Positions 514 to 60,982 of a stretch of 64,000 nucleotides of DNA are shown here, piece by piece (the first letter of the stretch is position 1; each line of letters begins with the position of its first letter). The stretch covers positions 1-64,000 of the IMG/VR virus record IMGVR_UViG_3300037153_000324; one strand, given 5' to 3'. The notes below the pieces were generated by a model. The model had not been told where the DNA came from, made no database searches, and saw only the letters and a list, made by a program, of their open reading frames with translations. The DNA is from a virus. Position numbers and translations under genes: made by a program.

Positions 514-547
514 TACATTAGTGGCATTTTCCGACAGAGAGGCAAAT

Positions 548-1550: not shown

Positions 1551-1798
1551 AAATGTCCGAGACATTGACGCTCGACCAGTGCGAACAGGTCTACATGGAC
1601 GGTTGCGCCGATGAAATATCCGGCGATGTGGAAGCGCCTATGGGACACTTCTACCGTGTCGGTCGCTTCATCGTCACGACCGACTCGCAGGGATTTCACA
1701 GCCTGAGCGAGTATGCCGATGAGGAGACTGCCCACTACGAATTCGAGCAGGCCGCAGTCGCGTACGCCGAGTGGGATAGCTGGAATGACGACGCTTGA
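1547..1798 (+). CDS. acidic hypothetical protein
   Basis: AAGGAAGG RBS, ATGA overlap with the previous gene. Confidence 0.7.
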   Translation: MKMSETLTLDQCEQVYMDGCADEISGDVEAPMGHFYRVGRFIVTTDSQGFHSLSEYADEETAHYEFEQAAVAYAEWDSWNDDA

Positions 1799-1814
1799 CA
1801 GCGTGCGCTATGAT
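1793..1814 (+). promoter_or_regulatory. putative promoter GCTTGACA-N8-TATGAT
   Basis: TTGACA 1795-1800, TATGAT 1809-1814. Confidence 0.6.
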
Positions 1815-1820
1815 GGGTGC

Positions 1821-1884
1821 GTTCCTTCTCTGTCGGAGGGATGAGCACAAGAGGGGCCGGGATTCTTCCCGGCCCTTTCTTTTT
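1821..1884 (+). ncRNA. candidate antisense sRNA (~65 nt), 5' seed UUCCUUCUCUGUCGGA
   Basis: bounded by a promoter and an intrinsic terminator, no ORF, 5' end complementary to the repeated TCCGACAGAGA leader box. Confidence 0.5.
1854..1884 (+). terminator. intrinsic terminator
   Basis: GGGCCGGGA-TTCT-TCCCGGCCC followed by TTTCTTTTT. Confidence 0.85.
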
Positions 1885-1973
1885 GCGCTCGCGCCGAAAT
1901 TCCACACCGGGGCCGAGTAGCTCGCGCCAGATCGCGCCAACCACGCCGCGCCGACCGCGCCGACGCCTGCTCT

Positions 1974-2129
1974 GAGGCCATAGGAGCCGTTCTCAGCTTT
2001 AGGGGTACTCCGGACTGCATTTCGGCTAGCGTGGCCTTAGAAGCCTTCTAAGGCACGTTTCCGGCGATCCTGGCTACCAGGCTCAACGTCACCTAGCCCA
2101 CCTGAGAGGCCACAGGAGCCGTTCTAAGC
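1974..2129. repeat. 24-bp imperfect direct repeat GAGGCCAYAGGAGCCGTTCTMAGC
   Basis: copies at 1974-1997 and 2106-2129, 22/24 identical. Confidence 0.7.
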
Positions 2130-2486
2130 CCTTCCGAGGGGTCGGGAAGGGTCTAGCCCTGTCTTGAGGCTACGCAAGTGCGAGCGAAGCTGCTACGACG
2201 TGAAACTGTACGGAATCTGAAGTTTGTGCTCAGCACCTAGCGCGAAACTGAAGATTTCGCGGCCCAAATTTTTTCAGGATGCCCATGTTCAGAGTGACCC
2301 TCCCGACTGGCGGGTGATAGTATCACTCTACAATTTCACTTTACATTCCGGTTGGCTTTCGAATTCCCATTCGGCAGAATTCGGCCCCGGCTTAGCAGAA
2401 TTTCATGGCGGTAGATTTCTCGGGGGATTCAACATTCCAGGAAATTACATCTGAAATGTATTCCGCCGTCGATCTGCTACTCACAC

Positions 2487-2508
2487 AGTATAGTCGAGCT
2501 TGTCAAGC
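2487..2508 (-). promoter_or_regulatory. putative leftward promoter GCTTGACA-N8-TATACT
   Basis: plus strand AGTATA 2487-2492 and TGTCAA 2501-2506. Confidence 0.6.
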
Positions 2509-2616: not shown

Positions 2617-2811
2617 CTAGGCATCCAAGATGTTGTAATCGAGATACAAATTACCCTCGATATCATCTCGAATCTCTTTCTGTGCATTCTCGATCAATTC
2701 GAGAACCGACCACGGCTGAAATTCATCCTGGTCTAATTCCCATTTACGTTCGAGAATTGCATCGGCGTAAGCGGCGCAAACATCCTCCGCCGCGATGCGA
2801 CGATTACGCAT
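2617..2811 (-). CDS. acidic hypothetical protein (5' end uncertain)
   Basis: 64-aa ORF; the RBS box at 2892-2909 opens a different 26-aa frame. Confidence 0.5.
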   Translation of the reverse strand: MRNRRIAAEDVCAAYADAILERKWELDQDEFQPWSVLELIENAQKEIRDDIEGNLYLDYNILDA

Positions 2812-2913
2812 GGAAACGCACTGGAAATAGCAGGATAAGCTCGACTATCCCAAGCAGAATCCACGGCCGTCGAATCAGATACATTTCATTTCTCCTGTTC
2901 TCTGTCGGAATGT

Positions 2914-4065
2914 AATTGCACGGTTTCACAGAGAGGCGAAATTCCACTCTCTGTCGGAGTTTTGTTTCCGTTATGCCTTGCCCATAAGCTCACGCAATGC
3001 GGCTCTGAGCATTTCGTTCATTTCTTCCTCAGGAAATGATGTTGCCATTCTCTCCACTGTAATTTCCAGCTTTGAGTTTTCGGCGTTGTAATTCACTCCC
3101 CAAGGAATCGAGTTATCTCCGCGTCCCATTCCCATCGTAATATCCCATTTTCGGCTTTCTCCGTGAAGGATATATGCCATCAATGCGAACGTCCGATATG
3201 ACGCAGGAGATAGCATCGGAGAAAACGAAGTGAAATCCACTACTTCGTTTTCCTTTTTCACTCGAATGTACGTGTTTTGCAGGCCGTTATCTTTTGTCTG
3301 CCTATACGTTCCGCGTAGTCGATAGTGAAATACAATTTCACTGTCAACGCCAGCGGATTCGAGAGAGTATGCGACCTTGCAAAGCCAGACATTGAATGCA
3401 TTGACAATTTCAGCGCTAGTTGTTGAAGCGAAACTAACGAGAATGTCCAATGAAATACCTGGAATTGCATCTCGCTTTGTGAATTCCGAATACGGTTTGT
3501 CATCGCCCGATAGCATCATATCGAAGTGAAATTCGTCGCCATCCTCATCGAAACGGAATTTCCGTTTTTCACGAATAGGCGGCACGAATTCCTCTAGTCC
3601 ATGAATTTCGGCCGATTGGAAACCGTTAGCTAGCCAATCCCGCAATTGCGCGAGTGTATAGCCATGCCAATGACTGTTCATATTTAGCAGGAATTGATTG
3701 ATTGCCCTAACGCTAGCTGCTCTGAAATTCGGAGCAACGTTATTTGCGAGGACAGTCGAAACAAACTCCTTTAGTTCCGACCAGTCAATTGAAAATTCCG
3801 GCTCTTTTGTTGCCGGAACGATCATGCCGAATTCACCCGCAACGGGTATGTAATTCGGCTTTGGCTCATTCGGAATTGCCGGGCTTTGGGAATCGAAACA
3901 ATGCTCGCAAAGAGCACCACGAATTCCTTTCTGCCATCCGACCTTGCTACCCGCCAGATATGGCGTTTGGCAAGATCGGCATTTTCCGGCATATCGCGAT
4001 GTAATTAGCTTCACAGTGGCTTCCTTTCTTTGTGAAATTTAGCCCCTCTGTGAAACCGTGCAATT
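2914..4065. repeat. 34-bp inverted repeat pair enclosing the VWA-like gene
   Basis: arms 2914-2947 and 4032-4065, 31/34 complementary. Confidence 0.9.
2971..4014 (-). CDS. Zn-finger plus VWA-like partner of a MoxR/CobS-type AAA+ ATPase
   Basis: N-terminal CxxC...CxxC; C-terminal alpha/beta region (...LESAGVDSEIV); adjacent to the AAA gene; GAAAGGAAG RBS. Confidence 0.6.
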   Translation of the reverse strand: MKLITSRYAGKCRSCQTPYLAGSKVGWQKGIRGALCEHCFDSQSPAIPNEPKPNYIPVAGEFGMIVPATKEPEFSIDWSELKEFVSTVLANNVAPNFRAASVRAINQFLLNMNSHWHGYTLAQLRDWLANGFQSAEIHGLEEFVPPIREKRKFRFDEDGDEFHFDMMLSGDDKPYSEFTKRDAIPGISLDILVSFASTTSAEIVNAFNVWLCKVAYSLESAGVDSEIVFHYRLRGTYRQTKDNGLQNTYIRVKKENEVVDFTSFSPMLSPASYRTFALMAYILHGESRKWDITMGMGRGDNSIPWGVNYNAENSKLEITVERMATSFPEEEMNEMLRAALRELMGKA

Positions 4066-4128
4066 TCTTTTTTTCTGTAAAGCCACTCAATTGAATCCCG
4101 CCGTTTTCTGCCGGGAGGGAATTACCTT

Positions 4129-5532
4129 TTAGTTACCGTTGAGCGACCGCATATTCTCCTCGAAAACGCGAGTGAAATAATCACGCTCCAAGCGCGTATC
4201 CAACTCGATTCGAACACGACCCATATTCCAACGGTCGAGTGTTGCAGCGTCCAATTTCTCGCGGCCCGTATACTGACGATTTGCTCCGAGTCCGAGTGTA
4301 TTGGCGCAGGCAGTCGCAATGAAATTGCGACTCCGATTTACGAATGCGCCTTTCACCGAATTGTAGAGCTTATCGCCCGCAAGAGCGTTGTTTAGGACGA
4401 GCAACATTCCCGCGTCAGCGGAGTCCATTTCCTCGAAATTGAACACGCCGCCTTGCCCGTAGATAGTGTCGAATTCGGCAGGGATAAAACCGGACAAAGT
4501 GCCGGTTCTATATGCATCGACAATTTCATCCTTCCATTCTGTCAACTCGTCCGAGTCAGACGGAATGGAATTCAGAATTCCAGCGAGCAATTGCGACTGT
4601 GCCATACCCGAGCCAGTGTAACGGCCGAGCAAGTCACCTCTTGTAATTCCGGGTGACATTGCCGTTTCACCGTAGGGCATTTCGAGGTAATCGGCTAGCT
4701 GAGAAAGCAGGGTCGATTTACCCGTACCTTTTGGCCCGACAAGGAAGATCGGCTGACGCGCTTCTGCGAGCAAAAGCACGTAACCGAACATTGCATGAAA
4801 TTCCTTGCCGTTTTCCGGCTTCGTGATGTTGCGCTTTTTCATTACGTCCGATGAAAACGTCACAAAATCGAACTTTGAAATTCCGATTTCATTACGTGCC
4901 TCATCCGGCCAATGCATTGTCATTGCGTCGAGCAATGCATTGGCAGGAATTCCGCGCGGAATCAATTTCGATCCCGCTTCCAACGGGCGCATTCCAATCG
5001 AGTCAATCGACTGAGAAAGCCGATCCCGATTTTCACAGAGAGTACGGGCGCGAATTACACCCGAATAAAACATCTCCCATTCACTGCGCAATTTCACTTT
5101 GCCGCTTGCCTGAGGCGTGGCAGGCTCATCCTCCGGCTCATCCTCGTCCGTAAGCTCGTCCGAGGGTTCGTCCGTAGGCTCATCCTCATCCTCATCCTCG
5201 TCCGGCTCATCCTCGTCCGGCTCATCCGATGAAATTGGGGACGAAATAGGTTCCGAAATCGACCTATCCTGATCTTCGGAGTGTTGCGTCGAAATTGTCG
5301 GATCAAGAATACGAAAGACCCGATGAATTTCATGATGCAGCATTTCATACTGCTCACTCATTGGCTTTGGGATTCGACGGCCATTTACATTAGCCTTGAA
5401 TACCAAAGTCTGAGCAGTAACGAGCGGCTTTAGTGCATCGTAAACCTGCCGCCTTGTCATGCCGCGATTTGCAAGTTCCGCGATCATATGACGATTGGAA
5501 CCCTTACGCCACGTTTTTCTGTTTATAGCCAC
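4129..5532 (-). CDS. MoxR/CbbQ/CobS-like AAA+ ATPase with acidic linker
   Basis: Walker A GPKGTGKS, Walker B FNFEEMD, ACANT sensor, LDAATLDRW Arg finger; GAAAGG RBS before GTG 5532. Confidence 0.85.
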   Translation of the reverse strand: MAINRKTWRKGSNRHMIAELANRGMTRRQVYDALKPLVTAQTLVFKANVNGRRIPKPMSEQYEMLHHEIHRVFRILDPTISTQHSEDQDRSISEPISSPISSDEPDEDEPDEDEDEDEPTDEPSDELTDEDEPEDEPATPQASGKVKLRSEWEMFYSGVIRARTLCENRDRLSQSIDSIGMRPLEAGSKLIPRGIPANALLDAMTMHWPDEARNEIGISKFDFVTFSSDVMKKRNITKPENGKEFHAMFGYVLLLAEARQPIFLVGPKGTGKSTLLSQLADYLEMPYGETAMSPGITRGDLLGRYTGSGMAQSQLLAGILNSIPSDSDELTEWKDEIVDAYRTGTLSGFIPAEFDTIYGQGGVFNFEEMDSADAGMLLVLNNALAGDKLYNSVKGAFVNRSRNFIATACANTLGLGANRQYTGREKLDAATLDRWNMGRVRIELDTRLERDYFTRVFEENMRSLNGN

Positions 5533-5568
5533 TTGAATTACCTTTCTGTTTTCGTTCTCTGTCGGATA

Positions 5569-5790
5569 GGACGGCCTCAATAAAGCGGTCGAATGAAATT
5601 CGAAGATTACTGCTTACTTAGCGGTCGGACGAACCTTACCCTTACTCGGAATTCCGAGCTTAGCAGACGTGCGATTTGCGTACAGCCTATTCGATGCGAC
5701 AGCCCTATAGCGCTGCCATTGCCTGTCGGATTTGATGAGCATAATTTCATTCTCACTTTCTTCCATCCGACCGCTTTATTGAGGCCATCC
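5569..5790. repeat. 27-bp nested inverted repeat pair enclosing a 42-aa ORF
   Basis: arms 5569-5595 and 5764-5790; both mismatches are G-U on the minus strand. Confidence 0.9.
5614..5742 (-). CDS. small basic protein MLIKSDRQWQRYRAVASNRLYANRTSAKLGIPSKGKVRPTAK
   Basis: translated by hand; GAAAGTGAGAATGAAA leader shared with ORF 6329..6424. Confidence 0.6.
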   Translation of the reverse strand: MLIKSDRQWQRYRAVASNRLYANRTSAKLGIPSKGKVRPTAK

Positions 5791-5842
5791 GTTTGTGATT
5801 CCCGGCAGAAAAACAGTGGGATTCAAGTGAATGGCTTTACAG

Positions 5843-6257
5843 TCTCAGACTGCCCGTTCAAACACTCTAAAGCGGATGAAATTGCTAGGTGTTTAGCAGT
5901 AGTACCTTCCGCAAATTACATCCTCACCGAATTCCCCAACATACTTGAAAAGTTTGCCGGAAAAGAAAGTCTCAGTGACGATCAAATCCCAACCTCGAAA
6001 TTCAAGATTCATTGGGATAGCTTCGGTGTCGTTCAGGTCGTAAATCTGACCCTTATAGCGGATGAAATCTCTGCCATCCTCACCGGCATCAATTTTCTGC
6101 CAGTCTAGATAGTCGAATTCCTCACGCTCTTTCGCCGTTAGTTCGTCCGCTCGAATTACATTCCGAGGGACATTGTTTGTGATAACGGTAATGCCCATTT
6201 TGTTTCCTCTCTGTCGGATGAAATCCGCTAAAGAGTGTTTGAATGGACAGTCTGAGA
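5843..6257. repeat. 35-bp inverted repeat pair enclosing a 101-aa gene
   Basis: arms 5843-5877 and 6223-6257. Confidence 0.9.
5893..6198 (-). CDS. conserved phage hypothetical protein
   Basis: TCCGACAGAGAGGAA RBS box before ATG 6198 (MGITVITNN...). Confidence 0.75.
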   Translation of the reverse strand: MGITVITNNVPRNVIRADELTAKEREEFDYLDWQKIDAGEDGRDFIRYKGQIYDLNDTEAIPMNLEFRGWDLIVTETFFSGKLFKYVGEFGEDVICGRYYC

Positions 6258-6259
6258 AA

Positions 6260-6481
6260 CCCTGCAATTGCACTTGATTGAGCGGCTAACAATTTCAGTT
6301 TATGCGAGCGAAAACCGAGTGAGGATTACTAGGACATTATCCACCGATAGAAGCGGACGTAAGCGTAAACGGCTAGTGCAAGGTAAAGCGTTTCGACTGC
6401 TAGCCAATAAGCGGTCATTTTCATTCTCACTTTCTGTCGGAGAGTGAAATTGCAGCCGCTCGATCAAGTGCAATTACAGGG
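6260..6481. repeat. 28-bp (extendable) inverted repeat pair enclosing a 31-aa ORF
   Basis: arms 6260-6287 and 6454-6481. Confidence 0.9.
6329..6424 (-). CDS. small single-TM peptide MKMTAYWLAVETLYLALAVYAYVRFYRWIMS
   Basis: translated by hand; TCCGACAGAAAGTGAG leader. Confidence 0.6.
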   Translation of the reverse strand: MKMTAYWLAVETLYLALAVYAYVRFYRWIMS

Positions 6482-6995
6482 ACGCTACTTGCCCGTAATA
6501 GTATCCGAGGATTCTCGCGACTTATTTGGATTTTCATTGCGGCCCTGACTCGAATTTACCGGGGTAATGTCGGGTAAGCGTAACCGTTGCTTTCACGGTC
6601 AGAGTTTCCGACTAGCCGGGTAAATTACATTCCGGGAGTTATGCGCAGATTTTCCGCCGAATTTCAGGACTGAGGGAATCCGTAGACCCGTTTCCTAACT
6701 GAAATTACGCGAGAATAACCCTCGTGGACTTGCCACGGGATTAGCGTCAAATTTTCATCGGCCGACCACAGAAATCGCAGGTAAATCTATCGCTTTTCGG
6801 AACTACGTCCTACGTGCGTCATTTTGATCCGTTTATGCGTCAATTCGGTGAAATTGTAGGGAAGAGACTCGCTCGATTCCGGCCCGGTATAAACACGGGG
6901 AATTTCACTTTTTATCGGCTACTAGATCGCAATATCGCACGCATCCGAGCGCGTAATCAGATTGCGCCGCTTTAGCGTGAAAAACCGATGTAATT
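6481..6995 (-). ncRNA. two candidate multi-stem structured RNA domains (6481-6748, 6750-6995)
   Basis: nested complementary pairs GACGCTA/TAGCGTC, ATTCTCGCG/CGCGAGAAT, AATTTACC/GGTAAATT, GTGAAATT/AATTTCAC; no ORF; strand assumed from the operon. Confidence 0.5.
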
Positions 6996-8099
6996 GTCAA
7001 AAATCAATGAGGCACGGCAAACCGTAAATTCCGCGCGGCTGGCATAGTCACAGCGGGGCAAAATCAAGAGGGAATGAGACGACGCTAATTCCAGCGTGAA
7101 AGCGGGAGAAAAATCCTCGCGCACACTCGCACGCCGAAACGCTTGTCCGTCACAAGAGCAGGCTTGCGCCTGTCTCGCCCGTGCCTCGATTTTCAAAGAG
7201 CGTAAAATCCGCTTCGCGGATTTTATGGGCAGTCGCAAGGGTTCACAAGGCTTGCCCGGACAGAAAACTCGCAATTTGCGGGAATTTCATTTCAGGGAAG
7301 GTCGATTTTCGGCGTTTTCGCAGAATTGGGCGATTTCTACGGAGCGTTACCGAAATCGGCAACGAAATTTGAGCGTTGTCGGCTTCGGCGACGCTTCGAT
7401 GAAATTGTGCTGTTTTGCAGGGATTTTGCCCCTCTGAAAAAACGAAATTTCACATTTCGACCCCACTAGGTCTAGTGCGGCAGGAATGACGCGACGAATT
7501 CGACCGAATCGACCTGACGCCGTTTCTCGACAATTTCATTGGAACCGGGCTTTTTCCGGTCGGAACGGTTCCAGAATCCCGCCAGGCCGTTTCTCCACAA
7601 TTTCATTCTCCGACCTTACGCGCCCGACCCTAATTCGCCCAAAACGGCGGATGAGGATTCTCGCGCAATTACATTGCAGGGACTCCTCATTGCCCTGTAG
7701 GCAAACACTGAAATTCGGGAACAATGACGCTCTGCCATTCCAACGCCGCTCACCCTAGGACAGTTCTCCGACCCCACGAATTTGCAGTGTTGCCCGTTCT
7801 GAGAATTACATTCGGCTATTCCAGAATCCCTCTCGCGAGAGGCAACAAAATTGCGGTTATTTGAAGCAGGGTGAATTCCCTGTAATCATGCGGTGTTGCC
7901 AAGAATTTCAACAGAATCATTTTCGGCGGTTTAGGAAAATTATACAGTAGACAACTACTCTCTACCTGCCTGCTTTACGATGCCAATTTCATAGAAACGT
8001 CCAAAAACTCCGCTCATACCCCGGCCCAGAGCATGAATTACAAAGCCATTTTTCCACCCATTTCTAGACCTCTTGAATAACGGTTCAATCGACCTAGGG

Positions 8100-8640
8100 A
8101 TCACCAATTACATCTCCATTTTCCAATTTCAAAAGAATAATCGAAAACCGCCCATTTGCAGGGGTTTTTCATTTGATACCGAACGTCTGTTTGATATCAA
8201 AAATCTATGTAATTCTACCGGATTCTGATGAAATTTGTATGGTTTACAACGGTGAAATTGGCGGGGCCAATATAAACACTAAAGCCCCTTTTTTTTACAT
8301 CTAAAATGTAAAAGAACAACCCCGTTTTTACCCTGTTTTTTTTACATTTTCCCATATTATACTTGCTATAACGAAATTAGTTTTGACCATTTTTTTTGAA
8401 TAATTCCAATTTCACGATTTGAGCGATTCTCAGGCATTTTTCGGGCTATTTTTCGAACACCTTTTTCAGAATTACTTTATAGCACAAATAATATGGGTAA
8501 AATGAAAATAAAAATGCCAGAAAAATAGCAAAAACGGCCCCAATAACCCACAAAATGTAAAACCTGAGAATGTAAAAAACGCAAAAACGACAAACGGACA
8601 AAAAATTTGCAAAAAACGGGATAATTGACAGAATCCACAG
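8100..8640. other. AT-rich A/T-tract region (candidate ori or packaging/terminus region)
   Basis: T-tracts 8285-8470 switching to A-tracts 8485-8620 in a ~1.7 kb non-coding gap between divergent arms. Confidence 0.45.
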
Positions 8641-8954
8641 GAGCCTCTCTGCCAGAACCTCGTTTCGGGCAAGGGAGAACTACCCCCAAGCCTTTTCAAG
8701 CCCTTAGAAACGCTCTCAGAGGCCCGCTCACAGCCTCACTTGACCTTCCAATCGGCCACAGATAGGCTCTTGTCGAAGGCGGGTATCACCCTTCCCCCTT
8801 CAGTCGCATGTTCAGGGCCGTTTGTCTCCCAGTGGCAACCGCAGGCCACTCGTCTCAAACGGCCCTACTCCTTGCCCTCATCCTCTCTCCTCTCTTCTCT
8901 CAGAATTACACCGGCAGAAATTACACCGACGAACCGACAGGGAGGAAAAATTAC

Positions 8955-34116: not shown

Positions 34117-34899
34117 ATGGCCGTCCCTGACATTATTTCAGGCGAGCTTTGGGTTCCGGGTACTGGGCAAGATCCGGCGAAATACCTTCTTCGCCCTGGC
34201 CGGGTAACTGCCCCTGGCGTACATACGGCAGGGCAATTGCGGCATGCACGGCCATACATGGCGCTAGATGACAAAGCTGGTTCGAGGATGTTTGTATTTC
34301 CGGTCGGCGTCGAAGGGTTCCGTCGTTCTGGCGAGACGAAGCTCGACACGCATTTTTACATTGGCGATAATTCAGCCGATGGTGTTGTTGTTCATCACGA
34401 AGAGGCACACATCGAGCTAAGCGGCGTGCTGCCTGGCTTGACTGCACAGGACAACATGGTTGACTGTATTTCACTTCTTAGGTCATGCCCGATGGACGGA
34501 ATGTTTCTTTACGTGCCCGGAATTTTCGAGAAGGTGCAATACGTCTTGCCGCAGACGTGGGACTTCAGTCACGAAGGCGACGATCGTACGCATTCGATTT
34601 CGTTCACAATTTCATATTTGCGGATTGGTGAAGGTGGAAAGACACGCGATCCGCTTGGTACTGCTCCTCCGACGAATATTCCCGGCTCGAAGAGTGACCC
34701 CAAAGGTTCGGCCGCAAAGACGTTCACTGTCAAAGCTGGTGCGCGAACGCTTAGGCAAATTGCAAGTATCGTCTATGGCGATCCTGAGAAGTGGATTACA
34801 CTTTATCAGTTGAACAGCTTTGGTTCTGGCGGCAGTGATACGCCGATGTTCACGTATGCGACGGCAGTCCTACCAATTGGGACGGTGCTTCGTGTATGA
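34117..34899 (+). CDS. tail tube initiator / LysM baseplate protein
   Basis: C-terminal TLRQIA..VYGDP.KW..LY.LN LysM. Confidence 0.75.
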   Translation: MAVPDIISGELWVPGTGQDPAKYLLRPGRVTAPGVHTAGQLRHARPYMALDDKAGSRMFVFPVGVEGFRRSGETKLDTHFYIGDNSADGVVVHHEEAHIELSGVLPGLTAQDNMVDCISLLRSCPMDGMFLYVPGIFEKVQYVLPQTWDFSHEGDDRTHSISFTISYLRIGEGGKTRDPLGTAPPTNIPGSKSDPKGSAAKTFTVKAGARTLRQIASIVYGDPEKWITLYQLNSFGSGGSDTPMFTYATAVLPIGTVLRV

Positions 34900-47629: not shown

Positions 47630-47941
47630 GTGGCTCACGATGCTCCGCACGGACGACAGAAGTCATCGAAATTAGTCAAGAAGCCGCATGTAACCGAGCA
47701 GACGAAATTTGACCTTTGGTTGTCCCAATGCATGAATGACGGGACGCCTGTAATTGTCACTTTTTCGCTCGATCTACAACCGATTTTGGGCGTTAGGACA
47801 ACTCCTTGTTGGGTGCTCGTTGTTGACCGCTATTTTGTCCAATTGGAGCTTATCGATCTGTTCGAAAAATTCGGTGCCGGTGGTAATATCTTCTGGTTTC
47901 CGAAAGACGTTCTCAGGGCGGTTTCTCTTGCAATTTCATAG
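47630..47941 (+). CDS. putative Hfq/Sm-like RNA-binding protein
   Basis: FDLWLSQCMNDGTPVIVTF / VVDRYFVQL / FWFPKDVLRAV resemble the Hfq helix-Sm1-Sm2 pattern by eye. Confidence 0.45.
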   Translation: MAHDAPHGRQKSSKLVKKPHVTEQTKFDLWLSQCMNDGTPVIVTFSLDLQPILGVRTTPCWVLVVDRYFVQLELIDLFEKFGAGGNIFWFPKDVLRAVSLAIS

Positions 47942-60754: not shown

Positions 60755-60982
60755 GTGGCGCGTGAAGTGAAATGCGATATCTGCCGGAAGCCGACAGAGA
60801 AGATTGTGGGCAAGTTGTTTTTTGCGCCTATAGTTCAAGGTGCAAGAACATTTCATTCGAAGTATTCGCATCACGCGGATGTGGGAATCTGCTGCAAGGA
60901 TCGCCTTCTGCGTGGGTTTGATTTTCGTGAGAGAACAAGCGCGGAGGAATATCACGAACGGAGACGGGTAAGGGCGGTATGA
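60755..60982 (+). CDS. small Zn-binding protein
   Basis: CDIC...D..IC. Confidence 0.6.
   Translation: MAREVKCDICRKPTEKIVGKLFFAPIVQGARTFHSKYSHHADVGICCKDRLLRGFDFRERTSAEEYHERRRVRAV

Follow-up and report, generated by a model that had tools for sequence, protein, structure and literature searches.

A candidate trans-acting antisense RNA matched to ribosome-binding-site leader tags in an apparently virulent phage and its relatives

The locus, the leader tag and its inverted copy

The stretch of DNA analyzed here (the window, 64,000 nt) is the first 64 kb of a virus record of 74,373 bp with direct terminal repeats, which is rated 100% complete and carries genes for a terminase, DnaB, primase, Pol III alpha, RecA and an endolysin. 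No tRNA genes were found, and searches of all six frames of this complete record for two families, the tyrosine integrase (PF00589) and HTH_3 (PF01381), recovered neither; the phage is apparently of the virulent type. INPHARED holds no deposited phage with similarity to it at the DNA level, and protein matches there are limited to distant ones of the ATPase and the terminase. Genes run rightward almost throughout, the sole leftward island lying at 2.6–6.5 kb between non-coding regions at 1.9–2.6 kb and 6.5–8.9 kb. The latter region (6480–8900) spans 2.4 kb without convincing genes, is AT-richer and is dense in AATTNCA words, T-runs and imperfect palindromes (e.g. 8325–8378/8470–8523); it is possibly an origin or packaging region. 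AATTNCA words are strongly over-represented on both strands, inside genes as well as between them, with 116 occurrences of AATTACA, 206 of AATTTCA, 58 of AATTCCA and 41 of AATTGCA in 74 kb, against about 9 expected for each.

A short motif, TCCGACAGAGA, which we term the leader tag, recurs at the 5' side of genes in this phage. With up to one mismatch it has nine matches in the window against 1.3 expected, and none of 100 shuffled controls reached nine (mean 1.32, maximum 5). In seven sense copies (530, 2899, 5556, 6208, 6431, a variant at 8934, and 71622) the tag is immediately followed by a purine-rich Shine-Dalgarno (SD) sequence and then a start codon. The tag copies and the elements around the single inverted copy are given below, with predicted energies of the duplexes that leaders could form with the candidate RNA.

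530–542 (+): leader tag (530–540) plus SD of a 73-aa gene at 548–769, ATG 548; duplex -24.7 kcal/mol
1795–1814 (+): promoter-like TTGACA-N8-TATGAT (TTGACA 1795–1800, TATGAT 1809–1814), a consensus match only
1821–1840 (+): anti-leader segment GTTCCTTCTCTGTCGGAGGG, reverse complement of the leader tag and SD
1851–1886 (+): intrinsic terminator, with a stem at 1851–1878 of 12 pairs (8 G-C) and a 4-nt loop, then CTTTTTGCGC; U-tract on the plus strand only
2899–2909 (-): leader tag of a 26-aa hydrophobic peptide gene and an overlapping 64-aa gene, ATG 2884; duplex -25.5 kcal/mol
2948–2958 (-): extra sense tag without a start codon; duplex -29.9 kcal/mol
5556–5566 (-): leader tag of the AAA_5 ATPase gene, GTG 5532; duplex -25.3 kcal/mol
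6208–6218 (-): leader tag of a 101-aa gene, ATG 6198; duplex -26.3 kcal/mol
6431–6441 (-): leader tag with one mismatch, of a 29–31-aa hydrophobic peptide gene, ATG 6424 or 6418; duplex -24.3 kcal/mol
8934–8946 (+): variant tag CCGACAGGGAGGA of the endolysin gene, ATG 8955; duplex -22.8 kcal/mol
60790–60800 (+): one-mismatch copy GCCGACAGAGA after recA, followed by GTG and a 58-aa ORF; duplex -23.8 kcal/mol
Genome position 71622 (+), outside the window: tag copy before a 171-aa gene

The positions of tag copies, promoter hexamers and terminator proposed in a sequence-only reading of this DNA were all correct, and the copies at 2948–2958 (-), 60790–60800 (+) and 71622 (+) add to those it had listed. 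The first of these additional copies adjoins the downstream arm of an inverted repeat that brackets the gene at 2971–4014, and the last but one is a possible further target; the 58-aa ORF region behind it (60790–60980, +) sits in a gap left empty by a crude gene call. Upstream of the 530–542 leader lies a TTGACA-N7-TATAAT pair. The gene starting at ATG 8955 matches the endolysin family phrog_21825 (E 3.9e-13), which bears out the earlier statement that a tag variant precedes the endolysin. As a target, the endolysin is a weak candidate: its predicted pairing needs two G:U pairs and mismatches, and it is marginal because the duplex energy falls within the range of many chance sites. The small hydrophobic peptides encoded by the tagged genes at 6328–6424 (-) and 2804–2884 (-) resemble type I toxins or small membrane proteins. 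In type I toxin-antitoxin systems of the tisB/istR type, an sRNA encoded elsewhere binds the 5' UTR of a small hydrophobic toxin; here the same tag also stands before the ATPase gene, the 101-aa gene and others, and the peptides are candidate toxins.

The sole inverted copy of the tag, at 1827–1837 (-), lacks a start codon, as had been suggested from its first inspection: the next 45 nt of the minus strand contain no ATG, GTG or TTG. On the plus strand it belongs to a compact unit, for which transcription is predicted to start near G1821. The upstream gene (1553–1798) ends with a TGA that falls inside the TTGACA hexamer; the closest homologue of this gene is P0003 (59% identity, on a 67.7-kb contig), which itself has no match in INPHARED. 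As expected of a small RNA (sRNA), the unit ends in an intrinsic terminator and holds no plausible ORF: its sole ATG (1841) abuts GGAGGG without spacing, and the frame runs through the terminator. A 66-nt RNA from this unit has a predicted fold of -35.2 kcal/mol (z -4.7), consisting of a small 5' hairpin with the loop UCUGUC and the terminator. A 70-aa minus-strand ORF across the unit (1808–2020) was rejected, its translation being Arg/Ala/Pro-rich junk. Comparison of 1796–1921 with Rfam 15, including C4 (RF01695), yielded no family and no C4 match, the best scores being 22–26 bits (rpsL_pseudo, SorY) against gathering scores of 70–111.

The frame of promoter and terminator that had been read around the unit stands in part: the hexamers are present and the terminator is strong, but the hexamers lie only 8 bp apart, against 16–18 bp in canonical promoters. 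We know of no RNA polymerase for which a TTGACA-N8-TAnnnT architecture is established. Two further sites of this kind lie in the window, at 1094 and 2506 (-), and two beyond it, at 70618 and 74153, with an N7 version at 495; the window has three N8 sites against 0.44 expected, and the site at 1094 is followed by a leaderless ATG 7 nt after the -10 hexamer. The class, which in general form consists of a perfect TTGACA 7–8 bp from a TAnnnT hexamer, is also present in three relatives (L050, L042 and L045). Arguing from consensus, we take the short spacing to be probably that of a real promoter class in this phage lineage.

Covariation of leader tags and anti-leaders in related phages

Related loci were collected in several ways. 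Those based on the terminase (L031–L046, about 60% identity) mostly do not reach the region of the unit, and one of them, L041, has two CCGACAG-plus-SD leaders. L050, a metagenome contig, was found with a single ATPase query, and L056, L057, L058, L059, L061 and L062 were found with alignment-based queries of the ATPase and its neighbor, which worked, whereas a DEDEDEDE pattern dominated the matches to the ATPase alone. Gene E and the endolysin, used as single-protein queries, recovered nothing, and a 15-mer scan of viral contigs gave 30 matches, all single-copy and attributable to chance. L050, L056–L059, L061 and L062 share the leftward-type operon; in the six of them with an anti-leader unit, which come from uncultured phages, protein identity is 35–60%. 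To choose leaders objectively, we took the first SD-plus-start that follows each arm of the gene-bracketing repeats. The AATTNCA bias is common to all close relatives (L031–L046, L056–L062) and absent in the more distant L047–L049 and L051–L055; L051–L055, which have neither the bias nor the tag, were rejected as relatives.

The leader tag proved to be common within a phage and different between phages. The form TCCGACAGARAGG is found in the window, L056, L058 and L062, while L059 has CCCTTCCGAC, L061 GAAAGGATCAAGC and L050 TTCAGGGARGGAA; L057 has two leader types, CCTGAGAGGATCG and TCCGGAGAGCGAG, and two matching units. In six relatives (L050, L056, L057, L059, L061 and L062) an anti-leader lies 5–16 nt upstream of a hairpin, on the strand opposite to the operon and 0.5–4 kb beyond it, which covers each phage whose sequence reaches far enough. 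Each anti-leader is antisense to the tag of its own phage.

The sequence-only reading had named covariation of seed and box among related phages as a check, and this came out in its favor across seven phages. When the 32 nt before each hairpin were cross-matched with the leaders of every phage, the cognate assignment was the single best of 5040 permutations, both by duplex energy and by the longest Watson-Crick run, with a cognate duplex energy of -175.5 against a mean of -130.9 for derangements. In a ranking of all terminator-like sites on both strands, with the upstream 35 nt scored for complementarity to the leaders of the same phage, the unit of this genome (G000) came first of 98 (-30.8, next best -21.5; z -5.6). 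The units of L056 (of 27 sites), L059 (of 25) and L062 (of 33) were likewise ranked first, and the two units of L057 were the top two of 27. The units of L050 and L061, whose hairpins lack a good U-tract, were left out of the ranking because they fail its U-tract criterion. Among the five units screened for polarity, the U-tract follows the hairpin in the anti-leader direction alone in four. In the five alignable units an invariant TGTCGG falls within the loop of a hairpin of 5 bp, and some of these sequences differ on both sides of its stem. The complementarity to ribosome-binding sites of several mRNAs, conserved and co-varying in relatives, is what would be expected of an sRNA.

The sequences upstream of the units differ. 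Promoter-like pairs precede those of this phage (N8), L050 (N8), L061 (N18), L056 (N18) and the second unit of L057 (N16), the last three having canonical -35/-10 spacing. [quoted passage not shown] The putative RNA may thus arise as a primary transcript in part of these phages and from a 3'-UTR in the rest.

Conservation in seven phages, together with the tracking of each phage's own tag, supports the presence of a functional antisense element that acts on the leaders. The same covariation could also stem from gene conversion, or reflect a shared protein to which every copy is a DNA-binding site.

A proposed masking RNA and the alternatives

We lean, with somewhat better than even confidence, toward a trans-acting antisense RNA, conserved among these phages, by which the ribosome-binding sites of the tagged genes would be masked. 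The interval 1821–1886 (+) would encode a non-coding RNA of about 64 nt, either transcribed independently or released from the tail of the rightward transcript, with the intrinsic terminator as its 3' end. Its first 17–20 nt would be antisense to TCCGACAGAGA and the SD purines on about eight mRNAs of the phage itself, the majority from the leftward operon at 2.6–6.5 kb. The 5' hairpin is envisaged to present CUGUCG for nucleation at the unpaired CGACAG of each leader; pairing would then extend across the SD and exclude the 30S subunit, and a duplex of 17–20 bp could also be a substrate for RNase III. That the RNA is produced, that it represses and when it acts are points that we infer.

The best non-self duplexes predicted in this genome involve seven leaders, at -24 to -30 kcal/mol. 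Some sites in coding regions also reach -24 to -26 kcal/mol, so that energy alone is not highly specific; the anti-leader of this phage is G+C-rich and resembles an anti-SD sequence, which makes genome-wide duplex energies only moderately specific. The earlier proposal of an sRNA regulon is partly supported: an antisense element tracks the leaders in seven phages, but its seed is only partly free, being partly sequestered in the small predicted hairpin. Hfq (PF17209) was not detected in the six frames of the phage at E<=1, and a 103-aa ORF at 47630–47941 (+), considered as an Hfq/Sm-like protein, had no Pfam or PHROG match and was not supported as such.

Four other readings of the inverted copy have to be weighed. 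Given its short, asymmetric sequence and its orientation along transcription in every copy except one, the tag might be a DNA operator for a phage-specific protein, the inverted copy being one more site that, for example, controls a convergent promoter/terminator region. Phage-specific tags would fit sites co-evolving with their binding protein, and sites of such a kind, the stoperators, have been contrasted with start-associated sequences (PMC3203893). We nevertheless regard an operator as unlikely, given that the conserved part always includes or abuts the SD, and is in essence the SD region itself in L050 and L061, which DNA binding does not predict. Moreover, two proteins would be required in L057, each having a single inverted site that adjoins a terminator, and the six-frame searches for PF00589 and PF01381, the two families covered, gave no match. 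Another reading would assign the function to the sense copy, as a leader-like decoy with hairpin, tag and SD and no ORF, which titrates ribosomes or an RNA-binding regulator. The sense copy would lie at the 3' end of a predicted long leftward non-coding transcript, since a TTGACA-N8-TATACT pair at 2506–2487 (-) points through 600 nt of well-folding non-coding sequence toward the hairpin and tag. Elsewhere too the tag often follows a sense-strand stem, and a decoy would co-vary with the leaders equally well. What makes this quite improbable to us is the position of the U-tracts on the other strand in four of the five screened units, which implies that the hairpin is built to terminate the anti-leader transcript, and the divergence of the L056 and L059 units from the leaders while they keep a hairpin TTCC-GACA-GGAA of their own.

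The anti-leader might instead be a cis-acting 3'-UTR element that pairs with the 5' leader tag of the same rightward transcript (530–542 with 1825–1837) and closes the mRNA, in the manner of the long inverted repeats around the leftward genes. Tag and anti-tag do lie on one strand, 1.3 kb apart, bracketing the genes at 548–1798; L059 and L061 have same-strand sense tags with canonical promoters upstream of the unit, and the leftward operon attests to the use of long-range RNA clamps in this lineage. We give this arrangement little credence, as L062 has no sense tag on its convergent arm within 20 kb and its anti-leader can accordingly pair only in trans with the operon leaders, the tagged gene of L056 lies downstream of the unit and not upstream, and the anti-leader is most complementary to leaders of the operon, which is encoded on the opposite strand. 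Shuffling of repeated regulatory cassettes is known from phage genomes, and the inverted copy could be the non-functional relic of a duplicated leader cassette that has lost its gene and keeps its similarity by gene conversion; the minus strand indeed reads as a stem, a tag and an SD-like GAAGGAA, like a leader without a gene. In seven phages with only 30–60% protein identity, such a relic would not be expected to persist at an equivalent place, lacking an ORF and adjoining a terminator of matching polarity, and we consider it very improbable. The masking RNA remains the reading that we prefer.

Known systems and the neighboring RNA elements

To our knowledge, few phage-encoded small RNAs regulate phage genes in trans (c4, P4 CI), and each acts on a single immunity operon. 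The specificity of c4 is set by matched changes in the RNA and its target. According to PMC8201110, citing Citron and Schuster 1990, phages P1/P7 encode the small c4 RNA, whose short boxes complementary to a ribosome-binding region let it act in trans on phage mRNA. The candidate RNA resembles c4 and the P4 CI RNA in being phage-encoded, presumed to act in trans and complementary to ribosome-binding sites; c4, in contrast, belongs to a temperate phage's immunity system, where it controls a single operon (icd/ant) and arises by processing of the transcript it shares with that operon, whereas about eight dispersed leaders are candidates here, in an apparently virulent phage. In T4, the translational repressor RegA and the endoribonuclease RegB shut down translation of many of the phage's own early mRNAs at their ribosome-binding sites. 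These effectors are proteins, while the candidate effector here is an RNA and its recognition element a defined tag; if the proposal is true, an RNA masking the ribosome-binding sites of a whole tagged gene set in a virulent-type phage would be the RNA counterpart of RegA/RegB. Enterobacterial sRNAs such as RybB and OmrA/B are 60–80 nt long, with a 5' seed, a Rho-independent terminator and many targets near ribosome-binding sites. They differ in being host-encoded and Hfq-dependent, while here the seed lies in a small hairpin and the phage has no detected Hfq. The stoperators of Cluster A mycobacteriophages are likewise many short, asymmetric and phage-specific sites along the direction of transcription, often near gene starts; however, they are DNA sites for a temperate immunity repressor and are not tied to the SD, and no integrase or HTH_3 domain was found here in the search for these two families.

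The closest parallel in arrangement comes from the start-associated sequences (SAS) and their extended forms (ESAS) in Cluster K mycobacteriophages, which are short asymmetric repeats with an SD core, a few nucleotides before the start codons of a subset of non-structural genes (PMC3203893). They have nearly always one orientation, the K1 phages each having a single inverted copy away from gene starts, and many are preceded by inverted repeats (PMC3203893). Whether SAS bind a phage-encoded RNA or protein was left open by the authors (Pope et al. 2011, PMC3203893). The present tag is similarly asymmetric, contains the SD, stands before starts and has one orientation save for a lone inverted copy. 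Its sequence, TCCGACAGAGA, differs from the SAS consensus GGGATAGGAGCCC, which belongs to temperate actinophages, and the ESAS inverted repeats are local 17-bp pairs, whereas the repeats of this phage bracket genes. We therefore view the tag as an analogue and not a member of the Cluster K SAS. In Mycobacterium phage Anaya (L063) we counted 16 sense SAS and one inverted, the latter at 34871–34883 (-), beyond the terminator of gp96 in the 385 bp that separate gp96 from gp97, where it overlaps a TTGACC-N17-TATCCC string. No obvious terminator follows it closely and no promoter frame is obvious around it, so that the parallel stays an analogy. A literature search for transcript data on Cluster K SAS found nothing useful. 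Should the masking RNA be real, it would offer a concrete answer to the purpose of start-associated sequences, a question open since 2011, and the matched tag/anti-tag pairs that differ between relatives would form a natural set of orthogonal translational switches.

The leftward operon has a further feature of RNA structure. Each of its genes is bracketed by its own unique inverted repeat of 28–39 nt with 87–93% complementarity (2909–6481), the arms of which are as follows.

2909–2947/4032–4070: inverted repeat
4075–4107/5810–5842: inverted repeat
5569–5598/5761–5790: inverted repeat
5843–5877/6223–6257: inverted repeat
6260–6287/6454–6481: inverted repeat

These clamps abut one another, and no other such repeats occur in the 74-kb genome. 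They are kept, with different sequences, in L041, L050, L056–L059, L061 and L062. Mismatched positions of the five clamps form G:U pairs more frequently when read as leftward RNA than when read in the other direction. Folding of the 101-aa cistron together with its flanking sequence puts the 35-nt repeat in place as the closing stem (z -8.8), with the tag (6208–6218) and SD mostly unpaired just inside it. By analogy, the clamps look like rRNA-type processing stalks around each cistron. Both repeat arms around the 29–31-aa peptide gene hold a promoter-like TTGAT(C/T)-N7/8 element pointing inward; that on the plus strand could therefore yield an antisense RNA to this gene.

A broader and more speculative view, which we put forward tentatively and hold to be possible though doubtful, is that the anti-leader RNA and the gene-by-gene clamps form one RNA-only control circuit, and that the same logic explains the Cluster K SAS with their lone inverted copy. 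Each 28–39-bp stem would loop out its cistron and present the tag and SD at the base of the stem, and a single small RNA would mask all the tags together.

Beyond the unit, about 600 nt without a credible ORF at 1885–2500 (-), downstream of the promoter-like site at 2506 (-), fold well (z -4.6); a conserved long non-coding RNA is one possibility for this stretch, a DNA element another. It contains GAGGCCAYAGGAGCCGTTCT repeats at 1973 and 2105, with a similar one at 8630, and L056, L057 and L058 have related 'cttagaacggctcc' motifs in their corresponding non-coding regions.
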